Below are positions 8,849 to 63,774 of a stretch of DNA of 64,000 nucleotides, in pieces. The notes under the pieces were generated by a model. It did not search any database. It was not told where the DNA came from and saw nothing but the letters and a program-made list of their open reading frames with translations. The stretch spans positions 2,496,001 to 2,560,000 of the forward strand of contig OY762492.1 of the NCBI GenBank assembly GCA_963665845.2, in the 5' to 3' direction. A program made the translations under genes and the position numbers. This stretch comes from Candidatus Poribacteria bacterium. Lineage in GTDB: Bacteria > Poribacteria > WGA-4E > GCA-2687025. Every line of letters begins with the position of its first letter. Within the stretch, counting starts at the first letter, position 1.

Positions 8849-9640
8849 TTACTGCGCCGCCCGTTTTTTGATGGTTCCCCATGCAAGCGGAGCCTTGCCG
8901 GACGGGTCGACCGACAGCAGCGACGCGCTCAAGCCTTGATCGGCGATCTGCGCCACCTCATCCTCCGACATGGCGTATCCAAAAACGGCGACCTCGTCAA
9001 TGGAGCCGTTCAGGAAGCGTCCGCCGCCGCAGCAGTCGTCAAAGCCGATCGTCATGGATCCGGTGTGTTCAGCCAGCTGCGTCGCGTTGAGGCTCAGTTC
9101 GCTTTCAACTTTTCCGTCAATGTAAAGTCTCCAGTCGCCTGTGGCGCTGTCGAAGGTGCCGATATAGCTGCGCCAGACGGTGATGTCGTCAACTGCGATC
9201 TGTCCAGTGTTCCATGCGTTGGGCTGGTTCCATCCTGCGCCGTTCCAGACGGGGAAGGCGACCACGGTACCGCCGGCGTTCGGGTGAAGAATATAGAGGT
9301 TGCGTTTGCCGGCGATGGCGCCGGAGGTGTTCCATGCCGCCGCCGCGCTTTTGACAACGGCGATGACCGTTATCGCGTCGCGCGGGCTTGCGTGGTCGGG
9401 GGTGCGGACATAGTCGCCGTCGCCGTCCAGTTCGAGCGCGCCGCCGAATTGGCCTTCGACCCATTCGGGATCGCCGTTCAGTTCGGCGTCCAGTTTGTTG
9501 CCGGAGCTGTCTTTGGCTTCGTTGCCGCCTCCGTCATCGAAGAGCCAGATGCCGACCGCCTTGTCCATATCGAACGCCTGCGCGGCAGAGAGCGACATCG
9601 CCGCTGCGCACACTGCAACCGTGAAGAACCGTCGAGTCAT
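8849..9640 (-). CDS. Secreted LamG/concanavalin A-like domain protein with conserved C-terminal motif
   Basis: Signal peptide (AQA), WLFDDGGG..AKDSSGN, GALELDGDGDYV, LYIDG, GSIDEVAVF; ends VDPSGKAPLAWGTIKK. Confidence 0.88.
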   Translation of the reverse strand: MTRRFFTVAVCAAAMSLSAAQAFDMDKAVGIWLFDDGGGNEAKDSSGNKLDAELNGDPEWVEGQFGGALELDGDGDYVRTPDHASPRDAITVIAVVKSAAAAWNTSGAIAGKRNLYILHPNAGGTVVAFPVWNGAGWNQPNAWNTGQIAVDDITVWRSYIGTFDSATGDWRLYIDGKVESELSLNATQLAEHTGSMTIGFDDCCGGGRFLNGSIDEVAVFGYAMSEDEVAQIADQGLSASLLSVDPSGKAPLAWGTIKKRAAQ

Positions 9641-9716
9641 GAGATGCCTCCATCAAGTTTTTTAGATTTAACGCCAACATTCTAAATCAAAGCCGCGCGC
9701 CGCGCAACCTATGGAT

Positions 9717-10240
9717 CTGACCTTACGTCTTTCACGGGTCAGGCTATGAGGATGCGGCATGTTGAGGCGGCGTGTTGGTTTTCGGCAAACCTCAAGTCAA
9801 TCTTTTCAATCCTGAAAATCCTAGTTCAGACAACAGACGGTTCGGGTTCGCCTCTGGATTCCCGCACGTTTTACCGCAAGGGCGGGAATGCATGTCCTCG
9901 CGGAAGCGGGGAACGGCGTGTAGGGCGCGGGTTTCTAGATTCCCTGACCTCACGCCTAAAGTAGGAACATCCCGGCATGGAAACGCGGACGGTTTCGAGG
10001 TGGACTCTGGATTCCTGCTTACGCGGGAATGACGGCTTGGTTGGCGGCGCCTTTTTCCTATGAATCGAGCGATCGTCGGTTCAAATGTCCCAACTTTACG
10101 CATAAGGCCAGAGATTCCCCCTTGAAAAGGGGGCAGGGGTTTTTAGCCGCGCGGCGTGTCGGTTTTCGGCAAATCACTTGACAATCTTTTCAATAAGGCT
10201 TTATTCGTTCAAATGTCCCAACGTTCTGCATGAGGTCAGA
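9717..10240. repeat. Mosaic repeat cluster
   Basis: Contains MITE-A ends, a MITE-B half (AATCCTAGTTCAGA), extended ATTCCCGC...GCGGGAAT palindromes and a CCCCCTTGAAAAGGGGG hairpin. Confidence 0.85.
9944..10111. mobile_element. MITE-A, 168 bp, imperfect terminal inverted repeats and 7-bp target duplication
   Basis: CTGACCTCACG...CATAAGGCCAG flanked by AGATTCC at 9937-9943 and 10112-10118; homologous to 59630-59798 in reverse orientation. Confidence 0.8.
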
Positions 10241-10270
10241 GACCGCCCTTCTCTTTTCGGCGCGCTCTTT

Positions 10271-10696
10271 TCATTTGTCAGCGGCGCGGCTTTCTTCATA
10301 CGCTTTGCGCCTCGCTTCATAACTCTTCCACTCCCACCGAGCGGCGATCGACAGCCTTCGTTCCGCTTCTGCGCGCGCTTCCAGCGCCGCCGCATATATG
10401 TTCGTTATATTCGGCTCTATAACCCGCAGGGGTTCCAATGCGGCGGCTTTTTTCGGCTCCTCCTCCGCCGCTTGATACGCCTTCCACTCGATCGGCGCCG
10501 CTTTTTCTAACTTCCGCGCGGCGGCGTCCATAATTCGTTGAGCGTTTTTCCATTCCTTATACGTCTCAGGAGCCGTCGCTTTCAAAGCCCGCTCCAATTC
10601 AGGAAAGACAGGTTCCTCCGCCGAACGTTGAGCGGCGCAGCTCAACATAAACGCCGCCAGGAACGAAGCCAAGCCCAGTTTCAACAGACGTTTCAT
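10271..10696 (-). CDS. Hypothetical lipoprotein
   Basis: MKRLLKLGLASFLAAFMLSC lipobox-like signal, GGGAGG RBS, helical repeats (APETYKEW, APIEWKAY). Confidence 0.7.
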   Translation of the reverse strand: MKRLLKLGLASFLAAFMLSCAAQRSAEEPVFPELERALKATAPETYKEWKNAQRIMDAAARKLEKAAPIEWKAYQAAEEEPKKAAALEPLRVIEPNITNIYAAALEARAEAERRLSIAARWEWKSYEARRKAYEESRAADK

Positions 10697-10774
10697 TGCG
10701 AGCCTCCCGCCAAGTGTTATGTTTTTTGATATGTTTGTTTTACAGGAATGCAGCGCTTGACGCAACCTTTGCCG

Positions 10775-11053
10775 CTGACCTTACGTCTTTAGTGGGGATA
10801 TGCCGGCATGGGTACGCGGACGGCGTGTAGGGCGCGGGTTCTAGACTCCCCCTTGAAAAGGGGATGGGGGGTTTAAAGAGGCGCGCAGGGGTTGCGATGC
10901 CTTAAGATTCCCGCTTGCGCGGGAATGACGGCGTGTAGGGCGCGGGTTTCTGGACTCCCCCTTGAAAAGGGGGGATGGGGGGTTTAAAGACGGGCGCGGG
11001 GGCTGCGATGCCTTAAGATTCCCGCACGTTTTACCGCAAGGGCGGGAATGACA
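10775..11053. repeat. Mosaic repeat cluster with two tandem hairpin-plus-palindrome units
   Basis: Duplicated GGCGTGTAGGGCGCGGGTT..ACTCCCCCTTGAAAAGGGG..GATGCCTTAAGATTCCCGC units after a MITE-A end. Confidence 0.85.
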
Positions 11054-11085
11054 GCCAGGATCGGCGGGCTTTAGCGCAAATAAAG

Positions 11086-11114
11086 TTGACACTGCCGTTC
11101 TCGTCCGTTATGAT
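11086..11114 (+). promoter_or_regulatory. Sigma70-type promoter of the tRNA cluster
   Basis: TTGACA-N17-TATGAT, 15 bp upstream of tRNA-Ser. Confidence 0.75.
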
Positions 11115-11129
11115 ATGCATGCTGTGTTT

Positions 11130-11219
11130 GGTGGGATGGCAGAGCGGCTTAACGCGGCGGTCTTGAAAACCGTTGTATCGGAAGCGATACCGCAGGTTCG
11201 AATCCTGCTCCCACCGCCA
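11130..11219 (+). tRNA. tRNA-Ser(TGA)
   Basis: GGTGGGA/TCCCACC acceptor stem, CT-TGA-AA loop, long variable arm, GTTCGAATC, CCA. Confidence 0.95.
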
Positions 11220-11230
11220 AACAAGATTGC

Positions 11231-11322
11231 GGAGAGATGCTGGAGTGGCTGAACAGGGCAGCCTGCTAAGCTGTTGTGGGGCTTACGCCTCACCGAGGGT
11301 TCAAATCCCTCTCTCTCCGCCA
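11231..11322 (+). tRNA. tRNA-Ser(GCT)
   Basis: GGAGAGA/TCTCTCC stem, CT-GCT-AA loop, long variable arm, CCA. Confidence 0.95.
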
Positions 11323-11331
11323 GACGAATGC

Positions 11332-11408
11332 GCGCCCGTAGCTCAGTGGATTAGAGCGCGTGACTACGGATCACGAAGTCGGGAGTTCGAATCTCTCCGG
11401 GCGCGCCA
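11332..11408 (+). tRNA. tRNA-Arg(ACG)
   Basis: GCGCCCG/CGGGCGC stem, CT-ACG-GA loop, GTTCGAATC, CCA. Confidence 0.95.
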
Positions 11409-11431
11409 CCTTTTTTGAAACCGGCGCAAAC

Positions 11432-11905
11432 ATGTTTTTTGTGACGAAACGCGACGAATACTGGATGGGCGAAGCGCTGAAAGAGGCGCGCGAAGCGATG
11501 GCGCGGGGCGAAACGCCGGTCGGCGCCGTCATCGAACGCGGCGGAAAAGAGCTGGCGCGCGACTCCAACCGCCGGCGCGAGCTTCAAGATCCGACCGCGC
11601 ACGCCGAGATCGGAGCCATCCGAAAAGCGGCGCGCCAAACCGGCAGCGAAACGCTGGACGGCGCGACCCTGTATGTCACCGTTGAGCCATGCGTTATGTG
11701 CGCCGGCGCCGTTCAGTGGGCGCGCATTGACCGCGTCGTGTACGGCATTGACGAACCGAAAAGCGGCGCCGTCCGCTCCCGTTATACGCTGCTCGCGGAC
11801 GCCAAAACGGGCAGGGCGGTTCCGTCGGTCGGCGGCTGCCGCGCGGACGAGGCGCTGGAACTGATGCAGGAATTTTTTGCCGGCTTACGCGCGTCTGCCA
11901 GATAG
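11432..11905 (+). CDS. tadA: tRNA adenosine(34) deaminase
   Basis: ETPVGAV, DPTAHAE and TVEPCVMCAGA zinc motifs; lies next to tRNA-Arg(ACG). Confidence 0.93.
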   Translation: MFFVTKRDEYWMGEALKEAREAMARGETPVGAVIERGGKELARDSNRRRELQDPTAHAEIGAIRKAARQTGSETLDGATLYVTVEPCVMCAGAVQWARIDRVVYGIDEPKSGAVRSRYTLLADAKTGRAVPSVGGCRADEALELMQEFFAGLRASAR

Positions 11906-11920
11906 ACGCGCGTTCATTGC

Positions 11921-12012
<92 letters not shown>

Positions 12013-12305
12013 TCCCTTGTTTAAATCATGGCGCCCGCCATCGCGGGCGCGCGGGCCGTTCTCCCTTGAAAAGGGGCTAGGGTTCAGAGGTGAAACGACG
12101 CGAATGGCGGCGCGTCCGATTCCCCCCTTGAAAAGGGGGGCTAGGGGGTTTAAAGGGCGGAAGCGGCGTCTTTTCGTCGTTCATGGCGGTTCTTTCGCCC
12201 TAACGCCCCAACTTTACGCATGAAGTTCCCCCTCAGCTTGACTTTGTCGATAGATCGGTTATCATACTGCATGGGTTATTAGAACTGCCAACGTGAGGCG
12301 CCGCC

Positions 12306-14741: not shown

Positions 14742-14753
14742 AGGAACGGAACT

Positions 14754-16898: not shown

Positions 16899-16968
16899 AC
16901 ATGGGCGCTCCGGCGGGTCGTCATTCCCGCGCAAGCGGGAATCTTAAGGTCGGGTAAAGGTTGAAACC

Positions 16969-18189: not shown

Positions 18190-18396
18190 CGGAGAGGAGC
18201 GCGGGAATGACGCGGTGAAAAACGCGGATGATGGCGGGCAGAATGAACGCCTGTTCACTCTTAAGGTGGAAGGTCAAAGAATGCCGTTGCGCCGAAGCTC
18301 CGCGACCAGGAACGCCTGATCGCGGTTTCCTTTCGTCGAGTTGCATGCGCCGCACAACAGCTGCAGGTTGTCGAGATGATCCGACCCGCCCTTGCT
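18167..18396 (-). repeat. 230-bp inverted repeat, copy 1 (HNH 3' end plus downstream DNA)
   Basis: Near-identical reverse complement of 23908-24137. Confidence 0.92.
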
Positions 18397-19539
18397 GCGC
18401 GGCACGATATGATCAATCGTGAAATTCCTGAATGGAAACGCGATTTGACAGCCCGCGCAATCGCCCTCCTGTTTCCCAAACAACGTATGCTTATGCGTCC
18501 GGTAATTCGGCAGCTTGCCGAGATCGGTTCGGTTTGGAATGTCGGTTCGATGCGCCATCGGATGCTGCGAAAACAGAAGCGGATTGTCCTTTTCAATGCG
18601 TATCTTGACCAGCTGCGCAGCCTTCGGCGACAGGTCGATTCCCGCCCATTGGCGGTTCAAACGTTCGGCGGCGACGCATGCCGTCGCGCAGCCGCAGAAC
18701 GGATCCAACACCATATCTCCCTCGTTGGAGGACGCCTTGATGATGCGGTCAAGCAGCGCCAGCGGCTTTTGTGTCGGATAACCTAGGTGTTCTCGATTCG
18801 CATTTACTTGCTGGAATGAGGGTATATCCGTCCAGGCAGAACTCATCGGCGCGCCTCTGTCCTCCTTTAAATAAACCCGCCGCTCCTGCCCTTTATATTT
18901 GTAAATTTTGTAACGCTTACCCTCCGAATCCGTCTTGTCGTACCGACGGATCGTTGCTTCTTTCAATGGCCGTCTCTGGACATTGAACGTTGCGCCTTCT
19001 CCGCGCCGATAGAACAGCAAGGTGTCGTGTCCTCTGACCCAGTTGCGAGCCTGTCCTTTGAACCCAGAAACGTCCTCGTTTGACCAGACAACCTCCCGCC
19101 GAAACGCCAGCCGCCCGAATACAGCGTCCATGATCAATTTCAGATAGTGGGACGCGGTCGAGTCGCAATGCAGGTAAATGCTGCCCGTATCCTTCAAGAT
19201 GCGTTTCATCTCCAGCAGGCGAACCGCCATCATGATCGCGTACGCCTTCATGCCTTTGCTGTGGGCGGTTCCGGCGGCGTCAATGACAGCGTACAGGGCA
19301 GGCTCTCGGTCGGCGATTTCGCCATGCCATGCGAGGTTGACATCGTCCAGCGTCCATGTGTCTTTGAACGCCGCGCCCGCCGCTTCCGATCCAATCGGAG
19401 CCGAGTAGTTTTGATTCGAGTTGAACGGCGGGTCTAGATAGATCAGGTCAACGCTGTCGGAGTTCATGCCGCGCATGATGTCCAGGTTGTCGCCTGTCCA
19501 CATCGTGCGGTTCGTCCAGTTCGGCTGATGTTGATTCAT
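18274..19539 (-). CDS. Beta-class N6A/N4C DNA methyltransferase fused to a C-terminal HNH endonuclease
   Basis: LIYLDPPF (motif IV), YPTQKP, LDPFCGCAT (motif I), then CAGC...IDHIVPRSKGG..NLQLLCGACN. Confidence 0.92.
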   Translation of the reverse strand: MNQHQPNWTNRTMWTGDNLDIMRGMNSDSVDLIYLDPPFNSNQNYSAPIGSEAAGAAFKDTWTLDDVNLAWHGEIADREPALYAVIDAAGTAHSKGMKAYAIMMAVRLLEMKRILKDTGSIYLHCDSTASHYLKLIMDAVFGRLAFRREVVWSNEDVSGFKGQARNWVRGHDTLLFYRRGEGATFNVQRRPLKEATIRRYDKTDSEGKRYKIYKYKGQERRVYLKEDRGAPMSSAWTDIPSFQQVNANREHLGYPTQKPLALLDRIIKASSNEGDMVLDPFCGCATACVAAERLNRQWAGIDLSPKAAQLVKIRIEKDNPLLFSQHPMAHRTDIPNRTDLGKLPNYRTHKHTLFGKQEGDCAGCQIAFPFRNFTIDHIVPRSKGGSDHLDNLQLLCGACNSTKGNRDQAFLVAELRRNGIL

Positions 19540-32534: not shown

Positions 32535-33893
32535 ATGCGGAGACTGCTTTTGACAACGGCTCTGGCGTTGGCGGCGCTTTGGACGGCGCCGTCCGCCCGC
32601 GCGCAGCCAAGCTATCTGGACGATATCCTTCCGATACTGAAACGCAGCTGCCAAGGGTGCCACAACCCCGCCGAACCCGCCGGCGACTTGAGCGTCGTCA
32701 GCCATGCCGACCTGCTCAAAGGGGGCAAATCCGGCTCCGCCGTCAAGCCCGGCAAACCGGACGAAAGCCTGCTCTATACGCTCGTCATCGGCGACGAACC
32801 GGCGATGCCGATGGGCGGCGATCCGCTTCCCCCCGAAGAAACCGACCTGCTCAAGCGGTGGATACTGGACGGCGCCAAAGACGACTCCCCCCCGCCCGAA
32901 GCGCAGCCCGCCCTTGCGCCGCCTGTTTACACCGCCGCTCCCGTCATCACGGCGCTTGCTTACGCGCCGGACGGAGAGACGATCGCCGTTTCAGGCTTTA
33001 GCGAGACGCTCATTCTTTCCGCTGACGGAACCGAACGGATCCGCCGCCTCGTCGGAGAGGCGCGCCGCATCGAGTCGATCGCCTACTCGGAGGAGGGGGA
33101 TATTCTGTGCGTCGGGGCGGGTTCGCCGGCGCAGTTTGGACAGGCGCAGCTGTGGGACCCGAAGACGGGGCGGCTCATCCGCGCCGTTAAATCCACCTAC
33201 GACACGATCTATTCCGCCGTTCTCTCGCCGGACGGAAAAAGCGTCGCGTTTGGATGCGCCGATAAAACGGCGCGCATCGTCTCCACTATCGACGGCGCGG
33301 AGCTGCTGAAATTTGAAAACCACAGCGACTGGGTCTTCGGCGCCATGTTCTCGCGGGACGGAACGCATCTGGTCACCGGCGGACGCGACGGCGCGCTCAA
33401 ACTGGTCAACGTCGAACTAGGGCAATTCATCGACGACATCAACGCAAGCAACAAAGGCTACGGCGGCATCAACGCCATCGCCCGCCATCCGGGCGCCGAT
33501 CAGGTCTTGAGCGGCGGAAGCGACCGGACGCCGCGCCTTTACAAGATCTACCGCGAACAGCGGCGCGACGTCGGCAACACCGACTTCAACCTTGTCCGCG
33601 CCTATGAAGCGCAGGCGGGTTCCATCAACGCGCTCGCGTTCGACAAGGAGGGCAAGATTTTTGCTGTCGGCTCCGCGGGGGGAGAGGTCCGCGTTTATGA
33701 AACGGCGTCTGGAAAACGCGCTGCGCAGTTTCAGGGCGACTCCGCCGCTGTCTTTGCGCTCGCCTTTCGTCCTGAAAGCGAGGAGCTGGCGGTCGGCGGT
33801 TTCGACGGACTCATCCGCGTCTTCAACCCGAATACAGGCGAGACGATACGCGAATTCAGCCCCTTCCCCATCGAAAACGAAGCCGAAAAATAA
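32535..33893 (+). CDS. Secreted planctomycete-type cytochrome c domain plus WD40 repeats
   Basis: Signal peptide, ILPILKRSCQGCH (CXXCH), PGKPDESLL, MP..WILDGA, WD40 blades. Confidence 0.88.
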   Translation: MRRLLLTTALALAALWTAPSARAQPSYLDDILPILKRSCQGCHNPAEPAGDLSVVSHADLLKGGKSGSAVKPGKPDESLLYTLVIGDEPAMPMGGDPLPPEETDLLKRWILDGAKDDSPPPEAQPALAPPVYTAAPVITALAYAPDGETIAVSGFSETLILSADGTERIRRLVGEARRIESIAYSEEGDILCVGAGSPAQFGQAQLWDPKTGRLIRAVKSTYDTIYSAVLSPDGKSVAFGCADKTARIVSTIDGAELLKFENHSDWVFGAMFSRDGTHLVTGGRDGALKLVNVELGQFIDDINASNKGYGGINAIARHPGADQVLSGGSDRTPRLYKIYREQRRDVGNTDFNLVRAYEAQAGSINALAFDKEGKIFAVGSAGGEVRVYETASGKRAAQFQGDSAAVFALAFRPESEELAVGGFDGLIRVFNPNTGETIREFSPFPIENEAEK

Positions 33894-43038: not shown

Positions 43039-44121
43039 TCATTCGCCGTCTTGCGAAGTTGGGCTATTCGGGCTGCTGTCCGCTTTTTTCACCGCTCCCC
43101 ACTGCGCTTTTTTTTTACCGGCTGGATCGACGGAGAGGAAGCGGCTTTTGCCCGCTAAAACCCAGGACCCGAACACGGCGTTCACGCCTTCGGGCGTAAC
43201 GCGAACGATCTCCTTCGTATCCACATTCACCCGCACCACGCGAAAGCCAAATTGTACGTTGTCCGGATTCGTTCCATATAAGAGCCACTTGCTGTCCGGA
43301 GACCAAGCCGTGAGTTCTATCCACCCCTTGACCGGTGTGATCAGCTCTATATTGGAACCGTCCGGATTCATGATAGAAATGCCGCCAAAACCTAGAAGCG
43401 CGATCTTTTTGCTGTCCGGAGACCACACAGGGGAAATTTCAGACGAATCGGGGGTGTTGGTGATGTTTCTCAGACCCGTTCCGTCCGCGTTCATGATGAA
43501 AATGTCGCGTTTGTGAGTGTGGTGGAACGGCTCCTTCACGTTCGTAGAGAATGCGATTTTTCCGTCCGGAGACACGGTTACCTGACTTTCCGACTTGCCC
43601 GCCGTGTTCGTGAGGTTAACCATCTTGCCTGTGGTGATGGTCAGCATATAAATCTCTCTGTGCGGACCATGAGGCGGCAGGAAGGCTCCCCCGACCGCGC
43701 AAACCATCTGCCTGCCCCCGGGCATCCATTGGCTGCTAAGTATTTCGAATTCGCGCCAAAAGTCGAAGCCCATTGTCTGGATGATCCTCTTGTCCATGTT
43801 TATTTCTTCCCCGGTTCTGAGGTTCAGAACATATTTTCCATAGAACTTATCCGGAACGCCGCCGGCGACAGAGACGTATTTGCCGTCCATGCTCCATATC
43901 GGAAGTCCGTATTCTCCCTTCAGCCAGAGCCGGTTGTTTTGACCGTCCCAGTCGATCAGGTACACGCCTCCTTCGGCTGTATAAGAAATGGTCGGCTTTT
44001 CCAGCTTCGTCACATCTTCGAGCGGTTCAAGATCGTTTCCGACAGCGGCGGCGGAGAGCAGAGCGAACAGACCCGCCGCTATGAAAACGGCGCAGCGTTT
44101 TGAAAATTGAGCGGTTGTCAT
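43039..44121 (-). CDS. Secreted TolB-like (PD40) beta-propeller protein, copy 1, with conserved C-terminal motif
   Basis: Signal peptide, WSPD repeats, IFIMNADGTGLRNIT; VDPAGKKKAQWGAVKK. Confidence 0.88.
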   Translation of the reverse strand: MTTAQFSKRCAVFIAAGLFALLSAAAVGNDLEPLEDVTKLEKPTISYTAEGGVYLIDWDGQNNRLWLKGEYGLPIWSMDGKYVSVAGGVPDKFYGKYVLNLRTGEEINMDKRIIQTMGFDFWREFEILSSQWMPGGRQMVCAVGGAFLPPHGPHREIYMLTITTGKMVNLTNTAGKSESQVTVSPDGKIAFSTNVKEPFHHTHKRDIFIMNADGTGLRNITNTPDSSEISPVWSPDSKKIALLGFGGISIMNPDGSNIELITPVKGWIELTAWSPDSKWLLYGTNPDNVQFGFRVVRVNVDTKEIVRVTPEGVNAVFGSWVLAGKSRFLSVDPAGKKKAQWGAVKKADSSPNSPTSQDGE

Positions 44122-44217: not shown

Positions 44218-45300
44218 TCAGTCGCCGTCTTGCGAAGTTGGACTATTCGGGCTGCTGTCCGCTTCTTTCAACGCTCCCCATTCCGCTTTTTTTTTACCCG
44301 CAGGGTCAACGGAGAGGAAGCGGCTCTTGCCCGCTAAAACCCAGGACCCGAACACGGCGTTCACGCCTTCGGGCGTAACGCGAACGATCTCCTTCGTATC
44401 CACATTCACCCGCACCACGCGAAAGCCAAATTGTACGTTGTCCGGATTCGTTCCATATAAGAGCCACTTGCTGTCCGGAGACCAAGCCGTGAGTTCTATC
44501 CACCCCTTGACCGGTGTGATCAGCTCTATATTGGAACCGTCCGGATTCATGATAGAAATGCCGCCAAAACCTAGAAGCGCGATCTTTTTGCCGTCCGGAG
44601 ACCACACAGGGGAAATTTCAGACGAATCGGGGGTGTTGGTGATGTTTCTCAGACCCGTTCCGTCCGCGTTCATGATGAAAATGTCGCGTTTGTGAGTGTG
44701 GTGGAACGGCTCCTTCACGTTCGTAGAGAATGCGATTTTTCCGTCAGGAGACACGGTTATCTGACTCTCTGATTTGCCCGCTGTATTCGTGATGTTGACC
44801 ATCTTGCCTGTGGTGATGGTCAGCATATAAATCTCTCTGTGCGGACCATGAGGCGGCAGGAAGGCTCCCCCGACCGCGCAAACCATCTGCCTGCCCCCGG
44901 GCATCCATTGGCTGCTAAGTATTTCGAATTCGCGCCAAAAGTCGAAGCCCATTGTCTGGATGATCCTCTTGTCCATGTTTATTTCTTCCCCGGTTCTGAG
45001 GTTCAGAACGTAATCGCCGTAGAACTTGTCCGGGACGCCGCCGGCGACAGAGACGTATTTGCCGTCCATGCTCCATATCGGAAGTCCGTATTCTCCCTTC
45101 AGCCAGAGCCGGTTGTTTTGACCGTCCCAGTCGATCAGGTACACGCCTCCTTCGGCTGTATAAGAAATGGTCGGCTTTTCCAGCTTCGTCACATCTTCGA
45201 GCGGTTCAAGATCGTTTCCGACAGCGGCGGCGGAGAGCAGGGCGAACAGACCCGCCGCTATGAAAACGGCGCAGCGTTTTGAAAATTGAGCGGTTGTCAT
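44218..45300 (-). CDS. Secreted TolB-like protein, copy 2 (1179-bp tandem duplication)
   Basis: Near-identical to copy 1; ends VDPAGKKKAEWGALKE. Confidence 0.88.
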   Translation of the reverse strand: MTTAQFSKRCAVFIAAGLFALLSAAAVGNDLEPLEDVTKLEKPTISYTAEGGVYLIDWDGQNNRLWLKGEYGLPIWSMDGKYVSVAGGVPDKFYGDYVLNLRTGEEINMDKRIIQTMGFDFWREFEILSSQWMPGGRQMVCAVGGAFLPPHGPHREIYMLTITTGKMVNITNTAGKSESQITVSPDGKIAFSTNVKEPFHHTHKRDIFIMNADGTGLRNITNTPDSSEISPVWSPDGKKIALLGFGGISIMNPDGSNIELITPVKGWIELTAWSPDSKWLLYGTNPDNVQFGFRVVRVNVDTKEIVRVTPEGVNAVFGSWVLAGKSRFLSVDPAGKKKAEWGALKEADSSPNSPTSQDGD

Positions 45301-45396: not shown

Positions 45397-46497
45397 TCAT
45401 TCGCCGTCTTGCGAAGTTGGGCTATTCGGGCTGCTGTCCGCTTTTTTCACCGCTCCCCACTGCGCTTTTTTTTTAACCGCTGGATCGACGGAGAGGAAGC
45501 GGCTTTTGCCCGCCATGACCCAGCGCGGGTCGCGCCCCCCATTGACCGTCAGCTGAACAACCTCCTTCGTTTTCACATCAACTCGAAAGACATTCCAAAC
45601 CTCATTTGGCTTCCATTCGCCTGAAAAGTACACAAGCCACCGCCCGTCCGGCGACCAGCAGGGGGCATGATCCCAGTTCGGGCTGGTTGTCATCTGCTCT
45701 ATGTTGGATCCGTCCGCATCCATCACGAAGACGTTGAGATCGGGAAATTCGGTGCCGATGTGCGCCGTGAAGGCGATCTGTTTCCCGTCCGGCGACCATG
45801 CAGCTATCTGGGCGTAATTGGTCGCTCTTTGATGGGGAGGACGGGTGAGGCGGGTCAAGCCGCTTCCGTCCGCGTTGATCGTAAAAATATCCCGCGCGCC
45901 GGTACCTGGATTAGAGTCGAACACTATTATGTCCGCCGTCGGCGACCACGAGGGGGTTTGGCTGATATCTCGCGGCGCTTTTGTCAGATTCGTCAGCCGC
46001 CCCGACGAAATATGCATCTTATAAATATCGGAGTGTGATTTGCCGATCCCCCCAGGCAGCACATAGCCTGAAAAAGCGAGCCAACGGCCGTCGCTAGACC
46101 AGGAGGGGGAGATGAGGCTGTATTCGCCATCGAAACGCTTTGTTATGTTTTCGGATCGATTCGTGGACAGATCAAGCACAAAAGTTGCGTAATTCCATGT
46201 TTCGCGGTCAAAGGCGACGATGGCGGCGCGCTTGCCGTCCGGCGACCACTCAACGCCCCCAGGAAAGCGCGTTCGCCCCCTCTTGTCTTTTATCCAGAGT
46301 CGGTCGTTCTGTCCGTCCCAGTCAATGAGCCGCAACTCGTAATCCAACATAGAATTGTAAACAATCGTTGGTTTGTTAAGCCGCAGAACATTCTCTTTGG
46401 GCTTTGGCAGCTGCGTCTCGGCAGACATCTCGCAGTAGAAGACTGACAACAGCGCGACTGCCAGAACGGCCGTCTTGAAAGCGGCAGCGATTCGCAT
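45397..46497 (-). CDS. Secreted TolB-like protein, divergent paralog
   Basis: AAGGAG RBS, signal peptide, WSPDG repeats; ends VDPAVKKKAQWGAVKK. Confidence 0.88.
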   Translation of the reverse strand: MRIAAAFKTAVLAVALLSVFYCEMSAETQLPKPKENVLRLNKPTIVYNSMLDYELRLIDWDGQNDRLWIKDKRGRTRFPGGVEWSPDGKRAAIVAFDRETWNYATFVLDLSTNRSENITKRFDGEYSLISPSWSSDGRWLAFSGYVLPGGIGKSHSDIYKMHISSGRLTNLTKAPRDISQTPSWSPTADIIVFDSNPGTGARDIFTINADGSGLTRLTRPPHQRATNYAQIAAWSPDGKQIAFTAHIGTEFPDLNVFVMDADGSNIEQMTTSPNWDHAPCWSPDGRWLVYFSGEWKPNEVWNVFRVDVKTKEVVQLTVNGGRDPRWVMAGKSRFLSVDPAVKKKAQWGAVKKADSSPNSPTSQDGE

Positions 46498-48855: not shown

Positions 48856-50283
48856 TCATTTCCGCGAAGATTCAAGCCGGGAGAGCAGATACTCTTGCGA
48901 GCGGTCGCCTTTGACCGAATTGCACGCCGCGCACAGCAGTTGCAGGTTCTCGTAGTGGTCGGAGCCGCCCTTGCTGCGCGGTACTTTATGATCGATGGTG
49001 AAATTCCTAAACGGAAACATGAATTTACAACCGCCGCAGCGACCCTCCTGCTCGCCGAACAGACGATGCTTATGCGTCCGATAATTCGGCAGCGCCCCCT
49101 GATCCGTCCGCTGCGGTATGTCCGTCCGGTGTATAAGTGGATGCTGCGAAAACAGCAGCGGGTTGTCCTGCTCTATGCGCGTCTTCACCAGCTCCGCCGC
49201 CTTCGCCGACAGGTCGATGCCCGCCCATTGACGACTCAGACGCTCCGCGGCGACGCACGCTGTCGCGCAACCGCAGAACGGATCAAGAACGAGGTCGCCC
49301 GCGTTGGACGACGCCCGAATGATGCGGTCTAGCAGCACCAACGGCTTCTGCGTCGGATATCCAACTTTCTCCTTTGATCTGGATTTCAAAGCCCCTATGT
49401 CGGCAATGATGTCCTGCGCAGCCATGCCCTTCATCTCATCAAGATACTGTTTAAAGCTGGGTACGGAGCCTCTCGGCGGCCAATAGATCCTGCCAATTTC
49501 ATCCAGGTACTCCAACGCTTCGATGGTCGATTCAGGAACATTCTCCGCCCCTGGAAAATTGCGTGGAATTGCCCAATGCCGCCCTTTTGAAGTGGGATCA
49601 TGACCGCGCCATGGTTGACCAGATTCGCCGTCTCGCGTTCCTGCGCCGGTCAGATCTCCCGTCTTGTACTTTCGTCCGTTGGCGTCTTCGCGTCGAAAAT
49701 TGTTTTTAATGTAGTCCTGATCATAAGGCTGATAAACGCGATTCCATCGGTATTTTTTGGATTTGGAATAAAACAGCAGAACATCATGAATGGGTCCAAA
49801 TCGGCGCGCTCCAGAATGCGCGCTGGTTCGTTTCCAAACAATTTCATTTCGAAAATTGTCCCGCCCAAAGACAGCGTCCATGATCAGTTTCAGATAATGG
49901 CTCGCCGTCGGGTCGCAGTGGAGATAGAGGCTGCCTGTGTCTTTCAGGATGCGCTTCATCTCGATCAGGCGAACCGCCATCATGATCGTGTAGGACTTCA
50001 TGCCGGATCCGTGCGCCGCGCCTGCCGCGTCGATGACGGCATACAAGGCAGGTTCGCGGTCGGCGATCTCGCCGTGCCATGCGAGGTCAATGTCGTCCAG
50101 CGTCCATGTATCTTTGAACGCGGCGCCTGCCGCTTCCGAGCCAACAGGCGCCGAGTATGTCCTGTTGGAGTTGAACGGCGGGTCTAGGTAGATCAGATCG
50201 ACGCAGTCGGAGTTCATGCCGCGCATGATGTCCAGGTTGTCGGCCGTCCACATGGTACGGTTGGCGAAGTTGGCGACGGTCAT
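48856..50283 (-). CDS. Beta-class DNA methyltransferase-HNH endonuclease fusion, second intact copy
   Basis: DPPF, YPTQKP, DPFCGCAT, CGGC..IDHKVPRSKGG..NLQLLCAACN. Confidence 0.92.
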   Translation of the reverse strand: MTVANFANRTMWTADNLDIMRGMNSDCVDLIYLDPPFNSNRTYSAPVGSEAAGAAFKDTWTLDDIDLAWHGEIADREPALYAVIDAAGAAHGSGMKSYTIMMAVRLIEMKRILKDTGSLYLHCDPTASHYLKLIMDAVFGRDNFRNEIVWKRTSAHSGARRFGPIHDVLLFYSKSKKYRWNRVYQPYDQDYIKNNFRREDANGRKYKTGDLTGAGTRDGESGQPWRGHDPTSKGRHWAIPRNFPGAENVPESTIEALEYLDEIGRIYWPPRGSVPSFKQYLDEMKGMAAQDIIADIGALKSRSKEKVGYPTQKPLVLLDRIIRASSNAGDLVLDPFCGCATACVAAERLSRQWAGIDLSAKAAELVKTRIEQDNPLLFSQHPLIHRTDIPQRTDQGALPNYRTHKHRLFGEQEGRCGGCKFMFPFRNFTIDHKVPRSKGGSDHYENLQLLCAACNSVKGDRSQEYLLSRLESSRK

Positions 50284-54840: not shown

Positions 54841-54847
54841 ATTTTTC

Positions 54848-54876: not shown

Positions 54877-54885
54877 ATCTTGTGC

Positions 54886-54960: not shown

Positions 54961-54967
54961 CAGATGT

Positions 54968-55052: not shown

Positions 55053-55058
55053 CCGCTT

Positions 55059-55133: not shown

Positions 55134-55241
55134 TGTTCTCGGCGCGCCGCGTCTTGCGTCCGCCGCCTCAATCCAGTATCCTATAAACGCTTTCTAACGT
55201 CGAAAGACGAATGTACGCAACGTAAACGGTAGGAGAGTTCA

Positions 55242-57707: not shown

Positions 57708-57709
57708 TC

Positions 57710-59542
57710 ATGGCGGAGGAACTGCTGCTTTACGTCGAGTCGGACGAGACGCCGTATCCGGGCGGGATGCCGCTCCGCTTTCCGTTTGAAAACGGCGCGA
57801 CCCGCCAGGCGCCGCACCCTGTTTATGAGCTGGACGACATCGAGGCGGTGGCGACGAACCCTGACCCTGGATCGCGTTACACGCTGCGGATCGGCGGCAT
57901 TGAGCATCCGCCGTCCTCGCTGTTGTCGGGGGGTCTGCGCTGGGGCGGTCAAAAGCTTCTCGCCAACTTTCGCGGCTGGGTTTCGGTACAGATCGCGCGC
58001 ATCGGCCCGGGCGGCGAAAGCTCCATGGTCATCGAGATCCTGTGCCGTCCGTCGAAGATCACTGAAGACCAGTACGAGGCGATGGTCATGGAGATTGAGG
58101 CGGCGTCCAAAGGTCTCATCCTGGATGTGATGGGCGCGCGGGCGGGCTTCGGCTGGAGCCAGCAAAATATGGCGACGCGGTTTCGCCATACCGAGGAGCA
58201 TGCCGAAATCGGAAACGCCCTAAACAGAATACGCGCCGAACTGGGCGGACTACAAAGCGGAGCGGCGCTGCAGTTAAAGGTGGACAGGGAGCGGGTCCAA
58301 AAATGGAGCTACAACGGACTTGACCACCGCTCGCTGAACGATCTGATCTCGACCGGCGTCGATCCGCGCGACCCGTCCAGCCGCCCCTTTTTATGCAGCG
58401 CTCCAGTCCGTTCCTTGACGGCGCAGACGCATGAGAACCAGCAGATCGGGCGGTTCTTGATGTGGCTGCGGCAGCGGCTTGGGTTCATCGCGCAGATGAT
58501 GGAGGCGCAGATGGCGCTGATCGATGAGGATCGCTGGTGGAAAGACCTGCCGCGTCCGGACGGGCCCTCCATCTGGGAGACGGAGGATGAGCCGCGCCGA
58601 CGCCGCCTTGAGCAGATTATTGAATCATGCAATGAGCATCGCCGCTCCATCTGGCGCGACATGCGCGAATACCCGTTTCTGCAGGCGGACGCCAAGCCGA
58701 TGGATCTGCGCCCGACAGCGCTGTTTCTGCGCCATCCTGTTTATTCGACGATCTACCGCGTCATGCTCTCGTTCATGCGGCAGCATGGGAACATCTTCGA
58801 CCGCGCCAATTTTGAGATGCAGGCGCGCGTCAAAGGCACCGACAAGCTGTACGAATATTGGACATATCTCAACATGCTGCGGTATTTGACGGAGCGGGGT
58901 CGGTTGAAAGTGGAGGAATACGGGTCGCTGTATGAGCGCTCGTCGCAGATTGGCGCCTACACGCTGCATATTGAGCGCTCGTCGGCGCTGTTTCGGCTGG
59001 ATGACACGCGGACGCTGCGCCTCTTATACACGCCGCTCATTTATCAACGGGAGGAGGCGGCGCGGCGCAGTCTCCCCTTCTACAAAGCCGGCGGCGGACT
59101 GCCGTATAGCCCCGACTTCATGATCGAGGTGCGCGAGGAGGGGCGGCTGAAGATGGGCGTCATTCTGGACGCGAAGTATATGCGCGATGTGTCCCGCGAA
59201 ATGGACGACCTGCGCAAATACTTGACCGCGATCCGCGACGCCGAAACGGGAGAGCCGTTCGCCCGTTCGCTCTGGCTGCTGTATGTTGGGAGCGAGGAGG
59301 CGGTCGGTCCGCCGTGCCGCGCCGAGATTCATACGAATCGCGCCGCGTTCATCCCGAACGACGCGGACTATGTGGAGACGCGCGGAGACGACTCGGTCGT
59401 CATTGGCGCGATGCGTTTTGCGCCGCGTCCGTGGGAGGGGCCGGACAGTTCGCTTGACCAGCTGGACGCGCTGTTCCGTCCGCTGCTGGAGAGCCTGGGC
59501 GTCTCATTCAGCCCAGAGTTTGAGGCTGCCGCTGTCGGGTAG
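57710..59542 (+). CDS. McrC-like (DUF2357-type) PD-(D/E)xK nuclease
   Basis: PSKITEDQYEAM, THENQ, HPVY, DKLYEYW, PDF..ILDAKY; starts 2 bp after McrB. Confidence 0.82.
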   Translation: MAEELLLYVESDETPYPGGMPLRFPFENGATRQAPHPVYELDDIEAVATNPDPGSRYTLRIGGIEHPPSSLLSGGLRWGGQKLLANFRGWVSVQIARIGPGGESSMVIEILCRPSKITEDQYEAMVMEIEAASKGLILDVMGARAGFGWSQQNMATRFRHTEEHAEIGNALNRIRAELGGLQSGAALQLKVDRERVQKWSYNGLDHRSLNDLISTGVDPRDPSSRPFLCSAPVRSLTAQTHENQQIGRFLMWLRQRLGFIAQMMEAQMALIDEDRWWKDLPRPDGPSIWETEDEPRRRRLEQIIESCNEHRRSIWRDMREYPFLQADAKPMDLRPTALFLRHPVYSTIYRVMLSFMRQHGNIFDRANFEMQARVKGTDKLYEYWTYLNMLRYLTERGRLKVEEYGSLYERSSQIGAYTLHIERSSALFRLDDTRTLRLLYTPLIYQREEAARRSLPFYKAGGGLPYSPDFMIEVREEGRLKMGVILDAKYMRDVSREMDDLRKYLTAIRDAETGEPFARSLWLLYVGSEEAVGPPCRAEIHTNRAAFIPNDADYVETRGDDSVVIGAMRFAPRPWEGPDSSLDQLDALFRPLLESLGVSFSPEFEAAAVG

Positions 59543-59629
59543 GCCATGTCCGTATAGTCCGTCCCGCGCATGAGGGGGTTTTCTAGACTCCCCCTTGAAA
59601 AGGCGTTTACGGGCGCGGCGTCCGATTCC

Positions 59630-59798
59630 CTGACCTCATGCTTAAAGTTGGGACATTTGAACCAACGATCGCTCTATTCATGGGAAAAAGGCGCCGCCAA
59701 CCAGACCGTCATTCCCGCGCAAGCGGGAATCCAGAGGCATCCTAGAAACCGTCCGCGTCCGCCCGCCCGACATGTCTCAACTTAAGACGTAAGGTCAG
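59630..59798. mobile_element. MITE-A, 169 bp
   Basis: CTGACCTCATGCTTAAAGTTGGGACAT...ATGTCTCAACTTAAGACGTAAGGTCAG (21 of 27 bases inverted match); internal ATTCCC-N8-GGGAAT. Confidence 0.8.
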
Positions 59799-59870
59799 CA
59801 ACGCGCGATTGCCCAATCCAGCAGGCTGGGTGTATAATAAAAGAACGTTTTTCTATGAAGGAGCGAGACG

Positions 59871-60674
59871 ATGAAACGATTTGGATTGTGCATAGCGGTC
59901 GCGCTGGCAATGGCGGCGTTGACGCCGGCGATGGCGCAGGATCAAGAGTACACTGTTCGGTATGCGTCCGATTTTCCGGACGATCCAGCCTCCGAGGCGA
60001 TTGTGTGGTCGCTTGTCGACTTTGTCGAGTTGGACAAGGGCGATTTTACGGAGCATGGCGGCGGTACACACAACGGAAACGACGATGCCAGCGGGCGATT
60101 TCTGTTTCTCTGGAACGAAGAGGGCCTCTTTTTCATGTCAGAGATTACAGACGATTCGCACTTGAACGCCAACGCAGGGGCCGGCATCTGGAACGGCGAC
60201 AGTACCCAGATCGCCATTGAGCCGACAGGCGATCGTCCGGGAGGCGGAGGCGGCGTCATGTACGAGTACAACTTCGGACTCGGCGCGCCCGATTCCGCGA
60301 CGCCCAGCTTCGCGCGCGCCCTTCGGCATGCCGATGGACCTGGGGCGTTCGACCCAGATCTGTTCGTGTACAAATTCGAGCGGATAGAGGAGCTGAAGCT
60401 GACCAAGTATCTGGTCTTCTTTCCTGCCAGCGAGATCGTCCCCGCCGAGCTGGAGGCAGATTCAACGATCGGACTGGGACTCATTGTGAACGACGGCGAC
60501 GACGAACCTGGACAAGCTGGACAGAAAGGATGGCTCGGATGGGGCGCCAACTCCATCGTCTTTGGAAAAGACGCGAGCCAGACCAACCTGCTCATACTTT
60601 CGGAGGAAGACCTCAGCGTTGATCCTGCCGGCAAGCTGGCAGCGTCCTGGGCGGACATCAAAACGAGCCGATAA
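59871..60674 (+). CDS. Secreted CBM9/DOMON-like carbohydrate-binding protein, copy 1
   Basis: AAGGAG RBS, signal peptide, DASG.F..LWNEEGL....ITDD, IWNGDS.QIAI, IGLGLIVNDGD; ends VDPAGKLAASWADIK. Confidence 0.8.
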   Translation: MKRFGLCIAVALAMAALTPAMAQDQEYTVRYASDFPDDPASEAIVWSLVDFVELDKGDFTEHGGGTHNGNDDASGRFLFLWNEEGLFFMSEITDDSHLNANAGAGIWNGDSTQIAIEPTGDRPGGGGGVMYEYNFGLGAPDSATPSFARALRHADGPGAFDPDLFVYKFERIEELKLTKYLVFFPASEIVPAELEADSTIGLGLIVNDGDDEPGQAGQKGWLGWGANSIVFGKDASQTNLLILSEEDLSVDPAGKLAASWADIKTSR

Positions 60675-60830
60675 ACAACGGAGGAACGCTGCAAGAAACA
60701 AACAGCGCCGCGTCATGCTTGAATGCGCATGCCGCGGCGCTGGATCGGCGGGCCGCCGCGCAAAATGAACGTCATCGAATTGAGCAGTCTAGGCGTATCA
60801 CATAGGAGAATGTTTTCTATGAAGGGCGAG

Positions 60831-61627
60831 ATGAAACGATCTGGATTGCGCATAGCGGCGGCGATGTCGATGGCGGCGTTCATGACAGCGGCGACGGCGC
60901 AGGATCAAGAGTACATTGTTCGGTATGCGCCAGAGGCGGCGCTTCCTGACGATCCTGCCTCCCTGTGGTCGATTGTCGATTTTGTCGAGTTGGACAAGGA
61001 CGATTTTACGGCGGCGGCATACACAACGGAAACGAGGACGCCAGCGGACGATTTCTGCTTCTTTGGAACGAAGAAGGCATCATCCTGATGATCGAAGTGA
61101 CAGACGATTCGCACCTGAACAACAACACTGGAGACGACATCTGGGTTGGCGACAGCGTCCAGGCCGCCATTGAACCGACAGGCGAGCGTCCGCCGGGCGG
61201 AGACGGCGTCATGTACGAATTCAACTTTGGACTCGGCGCTCCCAATTCCTCGACGCCCAGTTTCGCGCGCGAACTGCGGCATTTCAAAGGACCTGCAGAG
61301 TTCCACCCTGAAACAGTTTTTTACGAATTCGAGCGGGTGGAGAAGCATAAGCTGACCAAGTATCTGGTCTTCTTTCCTGCCAAACAGATCGCGCCCGCCG
61401 AGATGAAGGCGGATACAACGATGGGGCTGGGACTCATCGTGAACGACGGCGACGACGAACCTGGACAAGACGGACAAAAAGGATGGCTCGGATGGGGCGC
61501 CAACTCCATCGTCTTTGGAAAAGACGCGAGCCAAACCAACCTGCTCATACTTTCGCAAGCCGCCCTAAGCGTCGATCCAGCCGGCAAGCTGGCAGCGTCC
61601 TGGGCGGACATCAAAACAAGCCGATAA
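60831..61627 (+). pseudogene. CBM9-like paralog, copy 2, frameshifted
   Basis: 7-bp deletion near 61009 relative to copy 1 (TTT ACG GAG CAT GGC GGC becomes TTT AC GGC GGC); the ORF is split over two frames. Confidence 0.8.
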
Positions 61628-61663
61628 ACAACGGCGCAACACTACAAGAAAGGATCGGATCAT

Positions 61664-62449
61664 ATGAAACGAACAGCGATGGCGGCGGCATGCGCATTTG
61701 CGCTTGCCGGAGCGGCATTTGCCCAAGACCAGGAGTACTCCGCCTACCACACAGGCGGCTCCGCGCCGACAATCGACGCCAACTTGAACGACTGGAGCGG
61801 CGTCCCTGAAGGCGTCGCGCTCGCCGACTTTAGGGAGCATGGCGGCGGCAAATGGAACGGCGAAGACGACGCCAGCGGAACCTTCTGGCTCCTCTGGAAC
61901 GAAAACGGACTCTACTTCGCCGCGGACATCACGGACGACTCGCATCTGAACACAGGCGTCGGCGGCGGCATCTGGAACGGCGACGGAGCGCAGGTCGCCA
62001 TCGACCCGACGGGAGAACGCGCCGGCGGAGGCAATATGTACGAGTTCAACTTCGGTCTCGGCGGCCCCAACTCCGACAGCCCGCAATTCAGCCGGGCGCT
62101 CAAATTTGCGACGGGACCTGCGGAGGTGGGCGTCACGGCGGACGATTACGCGATTGCGCGCATCGAAGGGGAAAAACGGACGCTCTATGAAGCGTTCTTC
62201 CCGGCGGCTGCGATTCCGCCCACGGCTCTAGAAGCGGGCGGCTCCATCGGCTTCGGAATGATTGTGAACGACGGGGACGATGAGCCTGGTCAACAAGGGC
62301 AGAAAGGGTGGCTCGGATGGGGCGCGAACGCGATCGTCTTCGGCAAAGACACCGCGCAGATGAATGTCGTCAACTTCGTCGGAACGCCCGCGTCGGTTGA
62401 TCCGTCGGGCAAGATGGCGTCCTCATGGGGAACGCTCAAAACCCGCTAA
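61664..62449 (+). CDS. Secreted CBM9/DOMON-like protein, copy 3
   Basis: APTIDANLNDW, LLWNENGLYFAADITDD; ends VDPSGKMASSWGTLK. Confidence 0.82.
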   Translation: MKRTAMAAACAFALAGAAFAQDQEYSAYHTGGSAPTIDANLNDWSGVPEGVALADFREHGGGKWNGEDDASGTFWLLWNENGLYFAADITDDSHLNTGVGGGIWNGDGAQVAIDPTGERAGGGNMYEFNFGLGGPNSDSPQFSRALKFATGPAEVGVTADDYAIARIEGEKRTLYEAFFPAAAIPPTALEAGGSIGFGMIVNDGDDEPGQQGQKGWLGWGANAIVFGKDTAQMNVVNFVGTPASVDPSGKMASSWGTLKTR

Positions 62450-62580
62450 GATTCCCGTTTTCACGGGAATGACGAGAGGTGAACGGAAGATTCCCGTTTT
62501 CACGGGAATGACGAAAAGGTGAACGGAAGATTCCCGTTTTCACGGGAATGACGAAAAGGTGAACGGGAATGACGAAAAGG
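62448..62580. repeat. Tandem 39-40 bp repeat, three copies plus a partial, built on ATTCCC-GTTTTCAC-GGGAAT
   Basis: AAGATTCCCGTTTTCACGGGAATGACGA(G/AA)AGGTGAACGG repeated. Confidence 0.9.
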
Positions 62581-62611
62581 GCGGTACCCATCATGGGTAC
62601 CGCCCTTTTTT
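62575..62611. terminator. Bidirectional intrinsic terminator
   Basis: AAAAGGGCGGTACCCA-TCA-TGGGTACCGCCCTTTTTT between convergent genes. Confidence 0.8.
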
Positions 62612-62784
62612 ATGGAGGCTCCGCGTCCGATTCCCCCTTGAAAAGGGGGCTAGGGGGGTTTAAAGAACGGGCGCGGCGGCTGCGATGCCTTTTTATAAAG
62701 GCGCCGCAGAAGACGTCTGCGTTCGCATGCCGACATATCCCAACTTAAGACGCGAGGTCAGATTTTATGGAGGAGCCGTTCCGC

Positions 62785-63774
62785 CTATCTCTTTAAGCCC
62801 GCCCAGACGACAGGCAACTTCCCTCCGCTTGCGACATTCATCGGCGGCTCTTCCGGGTCGTCGCCTTCGAAGGTTGTCGGCGGGGCGTAGGCGAAGGTGT
62901 GCATGAAATGGTTGCCCTGTATGTCCAGAATCTGAGCCACTAGGCTGTTGTCCCCGGCGAGCCAGGCGGTTCGGGTCTGGATCACCGCCGCGTCGCGCGC
63001 GCCCTGAATGGTCGTGTCCCAGCCGACGACGCCCACATCGGAGAGCCGCATCAGGTGCGCTTGATGCAGCCCGATGTCGGAGCCGGCGTTGATGGTGAAC
63101 TGCGCATACTTCTTGCCGTCCAGTTTGACGCCTTTCATATCAACCCCGAACACATCCGGCACATCGTTGATGCGGTGAACGTCGTTGAAGTAATGATGCT
63201 TGTCGAGCCAGCGGCATTCAAAATCGTTGAATTCGTCGTCGCCGGCGCCCATGATCGCCTTCGGATTTGTCAGGTCATGGTAGAGGCCGAACGCGTGGCC
63301 GAGTTCGTGGGCGGTGAGGGAGACATGATCGGGGCAATTGCTATGCTCGGCGATCAGCGCCGTCCCGCCGTTTGCCCAGCCGAAGATGGGAAAGCCTGTC
63401 CCGCAGGGCCAGCCCTCCACAAATTCGGCGCCGGCGAGAAAGATCGCATAGACGTTGTTCTGGTTGCGGAACCGCTGCGGCAGCTCCTGCTCAATCTTGT
63501 TGTAGGTGTCGTGCAGGTAATGGTTGAGCGCATGCTTGCCGCGGAGGATGTGGATCGCCGGGTCGAGGCGGAAGGTTTTCTCGCCGAAGCCGTGCCGATC
63601 CATTTCGGACTGGTACAGCTCCTGCGCGCCTTCGATGAGCCGTTTCACCTTCGCGGTGTTTTCCGCCACATTGGTCGGCTTGAAATAGATCGCCTTGACC
63701 TGAAACGGCAGCTGGGCGGAAGCGCCGGCGGTCGTCAGCAGGGCGGACGCCATCAGAACGAGCAGTTTTTTCAA
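62785..63774 (-). CDS. Secreted metzincin-type zinc metallopeptidase with conserved C-terminal motif
   Basis: GAGGAG RBS with TTG start, signal peptide, HELGHAFGLYH, AIMG Met-turn; ends VASGGKLPVVWAGLKR. Confidence 0.85.
   Translation of the reverse strand: MKKLLVLMASALLTTAGASAQLPFQVKAIYFKPTNVAENTAKVKRLIEGAQELYQSEMDRHGFGEKTFRLDPAIHILRGKHALNHYLHDTYNKIEQELPQRFRNQNNVYAIFLAGAEFVEGWPCGTGFPIFGWANGGTALIAEHSNCPDHVSLTAHELGHAFGLYHDLTNPKAIMGAGDDEFNDFECRWLDKHHYFNDVHRINDVPDVFGVDMKGVKLDGKKYAQFTINAGSDIGLHQAHLMRLSDVGVVGWDTTIQGARDAAVIQTRTAWLAGDNSLVAQILDIQGNHFMHTFAYAPPTTFEGDDPEEPPMNVASGGKLPVVWAGLKR

Follow-up and report, generated by a model that had tools for sequence, protein, structure and literature searches.

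Here we present a portable 17-residue C-terminal peptide, hereafter the tag, carried by small signal-peptide proteins of Candidatus Poribacteria. It was noticed in a 64,000-nucleotide stretch of contig OY762492.1 (the window; G000:C1:2496001-2560000, where G000 is the source Poribacteria genome), in which all eight tagged genes end in the consensus L-S-V-D-P-x-G-K-x-A-x-x-W-[GA]-x-L-K, 1-15 residues ahead of the stop. The tag is real, phylum-wide and undescribed in the searchable literature and model libraries, and it appears to be a variant C-terminal sorting signal tied to a machine resembling that of type IX secretion (the T9SS). Because the same peptide also occurs in Poribacteria as the in-frame leader of T9SS C-terminal domains (CTDs), the explanation we favor, with about even confidence, is that the tag is the CTD leader working alone on small cargo, as a minimal type IX address label.

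The tag thereby marks about 4% of the genes in a dominant sponge-symbiont phylum as coding for likely envelope or surface proteins. These are mostly sugar-binding or propeller proteins of unknown role, carrying a motif that annotation libraries miss. Should the tag alone suffice for export or anchoring, it would overturn the folded-CTD rule for T9SS cargo and yield a 17-residue surface-display tag.

A terminal peptide on small secreted proteins

A strict pattern returned 95 matches among 58,028 six-frame open reading frames (ORFs) of G000, every one of them no more than 26 residues from the C-terminus. A hidden Markov model (HMM) built from the tails gave 112 matches at 12 bits or more, all 112 terminal, and reversed ORFs never reached 12 bits; chance is thus excluded. 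One HMM iteration extended the set to 124 terminal matches at 10 bits or more, distributed over 21 BLAST families with 5 fragments besides, and tagged genes account for about 4% of the approximately 3143 called genes. Along the tag, the 115 ORFs of at least 150 residues that score at least 17 bits and have the Trp residue show the counts L86 S101 V107 D71 P103 x G103 K102 x A64 x x W115 G70/A44 x L80 K111.

A crude heuristic assigns a signal peptide to 89 of the 117 tagged genes, compared with 560 of 2553 other genes, and at least 25 of the 28 tagged genes that fail the heuristic show one by eye. An earlier note on this DNA had suggested modeling the tails and checking for enrichment of Sec signal peptides and of terminal position; both are enriched in the genome. 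Twelve other genes have the W core (W-[GA]-x-[LIV]-K) near their end, about eight of which encode signal-peptide proteins with a degenerate tag. The tagged proteins are small (median 263 residues, maximum 464), compared with a median of 906 residues for CTD cargo, and the tag is followed by 1-26 residues over all tags and by 7-26 in the TolB-like family. The tails contain no transmembrane (TM) helix, the highest 19-residue hydropathy having a median of 0.31 and a maximum of 1.32.

The tag is also separable from the domains that precede it. In the family of the metallopeptidase from the window, whose closest named homologue is from Poribacteria, it closes 57 of 75 homologues, and most of the others look truncated or frameshifted. 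In the 57 aligned members the last conserved domain motif and the Trp lie 23-89 residues apart, connected by a linker rich in E, D, P and K. An AlphaFold model of the metallopeptidase gives the tail the lowest confidence (predicted local distance difference test, pLDDT, 60-75 vs 84-98 elsewhere) and assigns a short helix to the W core. In a modeled fusion of tag and CTD, the CTD is a confident beta-sandwich resembling FlgD, PorU (6za2) and PorZ (5m11) structures, while leader residues 1-20 have a pLDDT of 46-54 and are assigned no helix. The idea of a short helical signal, put forward in the earlier note, therefore holds for the W core in the first model but not in the fusion, and the helical hydrophobic moment of the tag (0.25) is not above background (0.29). 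Matches of the tag profile to PDB sequences were chance matches only, to antibody light-chain N-termini; the tag alone reached a best score of 0.81 in the ESM Atlas, under the lead threshold. A search for longer homologues of the CBM9-like domain gave a single match, with neither tag nor CTD.

Tag codons vary synonymously, with both serine codon classes in use; the constraint is therefore on the protein level, and the tag is not a DNA repeat. We checked for internal copies, for tags on proteins without a signal peptide, for a structural part in each fold and for a match to a characterized sorting-signal model, and none of these refuted the tag. With no TM helix, no folded CTD and no catalogued model matched, the proposal that these secreted proteins carry a portable signal for sorting or docking stands. 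At five loci (L325-L327, L340 and L341), tagged genes are followed just past their stop by a second, out-of-frame stretch of tag-coding DNA, a pattern that points to duplication and replacement of tags at the ends of genes.

Fusion of the tag to type IX secretion CTDs

The physical tie to type IX secretion was found by scanning the DNA of 151 Poribacteria genomes for the W core followed, after a gap of 6-36 bases, by a CTD start, with reversed patterns as controls. The core precedes a CTD start in 93 of the 151 genomes and in 8 of 9 families, and the reversed controls gave 0. Counted by hand, 115 of the 116 matches are in frame and 111 have a six-codon gap; with a gap of 39-69 bases, a further 7 matches were obtained, all 7 in frame. 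Thirty of the 116 loci were translated, and most show the full tag, not the core alone, running straight into strand 1 of the CTD and lying about 100 residues from the protein end. The fusion cargo at the translated loci belongs to five BLAST families (WD40, GSDH, FG-GAP, ASPIC and subtilase), to which the longer-gap set adds BNR and fn3. Furthermore, profile-profile comparison of the free tag with the fused leader gave a probability of 95% and an E value of 2.4e-8 over 23 columns. The strict fusion pattern has no match in G000 itself, where the W core is found upstream of the CTD in 16 of 60 CTD proteins, from three families, and one subtilase keeps the six-residue register between tag and CTD. 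Also, one tagged protein of G000 is 79-84% identical to two CTD proteins over approximately 210 residues.

The start of the tag is, in addition, a putative PorU-type cleavage site. Two reports (PMC4560394, PMC11969387) give the PorU cut as X/(GSA)(VLI), with sites including D/SVED, T/SIAD and N/GVED. Of the 115 tags, 104 have a (GSA)(VLI) dipeptide at their positions -11/-10, against a dipeptide background of 5.4%, and the tag occupies the place of the PorU-cut linker of CTD cargo. Together, the consensus match and the position suggest that the tag is cleaved there.

The earlier note had set the T9SS CTD aside and ascribed the tag to unknown machinery. It was right that the tag is no folded CTD, but the in-frame fusions tie it to type IX secretion all the same. 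The machinery is likewise not wholly obscure, given the CTD leader, the PorU consensus at the tag start and the SprA-, PorV- and PorU-like genes described below.

Secretion machinery in Poribacteria

G000 encodes 61 CTD proteins, 12 PorV-family genes, one SprA-like protein of 2225 residues and two PorU-sized C25 proteases (G000:C1:1293086-1299307 and 1858816-1864773), both of which keep the His...Cys dyad pattern. One PorV-like protein of G000 shares 94% identity with a protein encoded by a named Candidatus Poribacteria genome. Poribacteria genomes have 2-3 such PorU-sized proteases each; C25 was matched in 61 of 61 genomes, with at least two matches in 60, and 12-25 PorV-family genes were present in each of 15 of 15. 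Profiling of co-occurring peptidase and outer-membrane genes, as the earlier note had proposed, thus found SprA-, PorV- and PorU-like genes in every genome examined. This is in contrast to Kamke et al. 2014 (PMC3909097), which reports TIGR04183 tails in Poribacteria and no Por structural genes. GldM and GldN were unmatched in Poribacteria, yet they were also unmatched in the control genomes, and GldK and GldL were not searched. G000 also has an operon resembling the type II secretion system (T2SS), extending from pseudopilins to a 982-residue secretin (G000:C1:2726091-2737817; the genes besides the secretin were named by inspection). In some Poribacteria genomes this secretin is present in 2-3 tandem copies.

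Candidate readers of the tag were considered as well. A predicted complex of a 30-residue tag with a conserved general PorV-like barrel, one of the 12 paralogues, scored 0.01 and counts neither way. A SurA-like gene was rejected, its neighborhood not being kept beyond the genus, as was a second conserved PorV clade (375-399 residues), of which no orthologue was seen in G000.

Several further arrangements were observed around these genes. A number of PorV-family barrels adjoin one large CTD protein. In one genome, three tagged genes flank the conserved general PorV-like gene (G002:C117:7223-11047, locus L279), an arrangement that the remaining loci of the clade do not show. At L051:5270-10204, L034:5091-7070 and L060:2715-4589, DUF6785/6784 membrane proteins, one of them Pfam-confirmed, lie on either side of a PorV-like gene, and look-alikes recognized by eye lie near a PorU-like gene and a large CTD gene. 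The small contig C3 carries a broken duplicate of the gene for a 2073-residue PorU-like protein (G000:C3:6740-11236). Finally, a short ORF of about one small domain plus a CTD (L058:1956-2819; G000:C1:1956-2822) may be an adaptor or a gene remnant.

Distribution and a cousin of the tag

The tag profile matches 151 of 151 Poribacteria genomes. With the motif T-W-G-x-I-K-x-L-Y-R-stop as a search pattern in metagenomes, a shorter cousin with the same core was matched in at least 123 stretches. The cousin-bearing proteins mostly start with a signal peptide where the 5' end is present, and cousin tags also terminate neighboring genes that the pattern had not selected. One member of the cluster bears the name Candidatus Eisenbacteria, with which the Atlas concurs. 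A cousin profile gave 1498 matches among 1.84 billion representatives; in the best 150, the core lies no more than 8 residues from the end in 147, and 2 are false. Outside Poribacteria, co-occurrence with the T9SS was judged from neighboring CTD cargo on metagenome contigs alone: a FlgD-type CTD cargo gene is also present at 9 of 33 cousin loci of at least 4 kb, a figure without a background control. The cousin and tag profiles align over the core only (probability 73%), and since the core was itself chosen by the search pattern, homology of the two is plausible only. The earlier term "lineage-specific" is too narrow in view of the cousin on Eisenbacteria-like contigs.

A putative export route and its alternatives

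In the favored explanation, tagged proteins would first be exported by Sec into the periplasm, in keeping with the signal peptides observed. Some component of the T9SS-like machine in Poribacteria would then recognize the W core, and the folded cargo would pass the outer membrane via the SprA-like translocon. One of the 2-3 PorU-like C25 proteases would cut at x/S-V-D, as the consensus match and position of the site suggest, removing the tag, and the new C-terminus would be joined to a surface anchor or the protein released. Large cargo would use a CTD with or without a preceding tag, and small cargo the tag alone. A bolder form of this proposal is a type IX signal of a second kind, consisting of a linear Trp peptide that dispenses with a folded CTD and has its own PorV- or PorU-family reader. 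A T9SS without a recognizable Gld motor would use it to bring 100-300 small lectin-like and propeller proteins of each cell to its surface, in Poribacteria and, in the shorter form, in Eisenbacteria and allied uncultured phyla. We regard this form as possible and clearly short of an even prospect.

A number of observations weigh against the favored route. A 17-residue peptide as sole export signal has no precedent, and the shortest T9SS signals known are three-stranded CTDs of 40-51 residues (PMC11969387). The SprA-like match, though found in 61 of 61 Poribacteria genomes, scores under the curated cut-off, and the T2SS-like secretin, also in 61 of 61, is as universal; profiling within the phylum therefore cannot separate T9SS from T2SS. 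The tag profile had no match in four genomes from other phyla, three of Bacteroidota and one of Elusimicrobia. Many of the fusion matches are orthologues from related genomes and so not independent, and 44 of the 60 CTD proteins of G000 have no W core, which makes tag and CTD independent modules. In the cousin, the place of S-V-D is mostly taken by T-P-[VAT], with Pro at the small-residue position. Secretion in Porphyromonas, according to PMC11285876, requires a folded CTD including its C-terminus. The approximately eight degenerate tags keep the W core and have lost or altered the S-V-D part, and the core is doubled in one LamG family of Poribacteria, as seen in four genomes. Four apparent lipoproteins (P0249, P0257, P0327 and P0345) hold 2-4 cousin copies, in tandem, between domains or, in one of the four, directly behind the signal peptide; such multi-copy, non-terminal cousins are easier to reconcile with a docking motif that can be repeated than with a cleavage signal present once.

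Of these points, the folded-CTD requirement, the survival of the core in degenerate tags, the doubled core and the lipoprotein cousins also argue for an uncleaved docking motif, which we consider rather unlikely. Its W-[GA]-x-L-K core would bind a periplasmic or surface scaffold, lipopolysaccharide or membrane in the manner of a tiny dockerin or S-layer homology (SLH)-type anchor, so that tag-only proteins would be kept in the envelope and, in fusions, the CTD would export and the tag hold. The 7-26 residues tolerated past the tag in the TolB-like family and the short helix over the core in one AlphaFold model are in line with docking. It leaves unexplained, however, both the consensus match in 104 of 115 tags and the six-residue register to strand 1, which provides no linker for cutting the CTD off while keeping the tag; moreover, the hydrophobic moment stays at background and no scaffold gene was found. 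A hybrid, which we judge improbable, would have the small tagged proteins exit by the T2SS-like machine, with the tag read by the T2SS or only by a surface PorU-like sortase. GlyGly-CTERM proteins provide the model, pairing a sortase-type signal with T2SS export. The hybrid accords with the pseudopilin-to-secretin operon, the universal secretin and the small size of the cargo; it would retain the cleavage-consensus match and explain why fusions still need their CTD, and the several PorU paralogues per genome would allow a dedicated one. No positional tie of the tag to T2SS genes was seen, though, and the sole physical tie found is to the T9SS CTD.

It is very improbable, in our judgment, that the tag serves periplasmic quality control, being read by a chaperone or tail-specific protease for folding or turnover apart from outer-membrane export. 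Such a role would suit a motif that is short, aromatic and close to the terminus of soluble secreted proteins of many kinds, and a SurA-like gene does lie inside the T9SS-like cluster of G000. That neighborhood, however, is kept only in a same-genus genome and at 0 of 16 other loci, and in CTD fusions the tag is far from the protein end. Almost no credence attaches to the view that the tag belongs structurally to each fold or is a DNA repeat translated at the ends of genes. The out-of-frame second copies behind some stop codons do show that the DNA gets duplicated; against this stand the 21 BLAST families bearing the tag, the variable linker within a single family, the poorly modeled tail and the synonymous codon variation.

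Tagged genes of the window

The earlier note had listed eight signal-peptide proteins of four fold types with a common C-terminal motif. All of the motifs were found as quoted, and Pfam supports the folds: Laminin_G_3, PD40, CBM9_1 and a reprolysin-like metallopeptidase. The LamG-like secreted protein (8849..9640, minus strand; 263 residues, PF13385) has a signal peptide and its tag at 8867..8917, with the stop 5 residues downstream. Three TolB-like propeller proteins (PF07676), from a family with 43 members in the genome, are encoded on the minus strand at 43039..44121 (360 residues), 44218..45300 (360 residues) and 45397..46497 (366 residues). Their tags, at 43087..43137, 44266..44316 and 45445..45495, are each followed by a 15-residue extension, polar and acidic in the first.

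On the plus strand, the CBM9-like secreted protein at 59871..60674 (267 residues, PF06452) has its tag at 60612..60662, 3 residues ahead of the stop, and the Pfam-assigned CBM9-like protein at 61664..62449 (261 residues) has its tag at 62390..62440, 2 residues ahead. The CBM9-like paralogue between them (60831..61627, plus strand) has the expected tag (61565..61615, stop 3 residues downstream) but not an intact reading frame: the assembly contains a frameshift near 61000, and the tagged frame is open only from 60950. Since the gene is unbroken in the same-genus genome G008, the frameshift is a recent pseudogene mutation or an assembly error. The eighth gene (62785..63774, minus strand) encodes a secreted zinc metallopeptidase of 329 residues (PF13582), with an HExxH motif that is invariant as HELGH in the family alignment, and a divergent tag at 62791..62841, 1 residue ahead of the stop. 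As noted earlier, the lipoproteins of the window and the cytochrome c-WD40 candidate (32550-33890, 447 residues) carry no tag.

Two repeated elements were also seen. A short repeat in intergenic DNA, of which G000 has many dozens of copies, including one at about 59661-59792 of the window, surfaced as spurious ORF matches and is similar to a miniature inverted-repeat transposable element (MITE) or a repetitive extragenic palindrome (REP). The minus-strand genes at 18277-19539 and 48859-50283 belong to a repeated family with further copies in the genome which, by eye, resembles DNA methyltransferase-HNH fusions.

Comparison with known sorting signals

Pfam and NCBIfam searches with whole proteins, tails and both tag alignments gave no model for the tail, and no description of the tag was found in literature searches, whose reach did not include subscription journals and supplements. 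Exosortase (PF09721) was not found in G000, which is 90% complete; sortase and rhombosortase were not searched for. Lacking the defining fold or helix, the tag belongs neither to the CTD families nor to the TM-anchored sorting signals.

Among the latter, PEP-CTERM/exosortase, LPXTG/sortase and GlyGly-CTERM/rhombosortase use short portable C-terminal signals with a TM helix after the motif. The tag resembles them in its basic end and in marking roughly a hundred unrelated secreted proteins in a genome, where a low-complexity linker often precedes it. Unlike these signals, it has no TM helix, its highest 19-residue hydropathy being 1.3.

The short CTDs of Prevotella intermedia (PMC11969387) are shrunken T9SS signals that are still cleaved (PT/GI) and glycosylated; they span 40-51 residues with motifs B, D and E and three strands, whereas the tag has only the pre-CTD part. 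The T9SS type A CTD (TIGR04183, PF18962; FlgD_ig PF13860 in Poribacteria) is a beta-sandwich of approximately 70-100 residues. The tag, with 17 residues plus 1-26, differs in matching neither TIGR04183 nor PF18962, in lacking motifs B, D (GxY) and E (the terminal strands) throughout the table of 115 tags, in having an invariant Trp core not covered by any CTD model, in its small cargo and in the undetected GldM and GldN, which were undetected in the controls too. The similarities are that both combine a Sec signal peptide with a C-terminal signal on unrelated cargo, that the tag opens with X/(GSA)(VLI), that SprA-, PorV- and PorU-like genes co-occur, and that the tag is itself the leader of type A CTDs in 93 of 151 genomes. 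In its working, the tag most likely corresponds to the front part of a T9SS signal.

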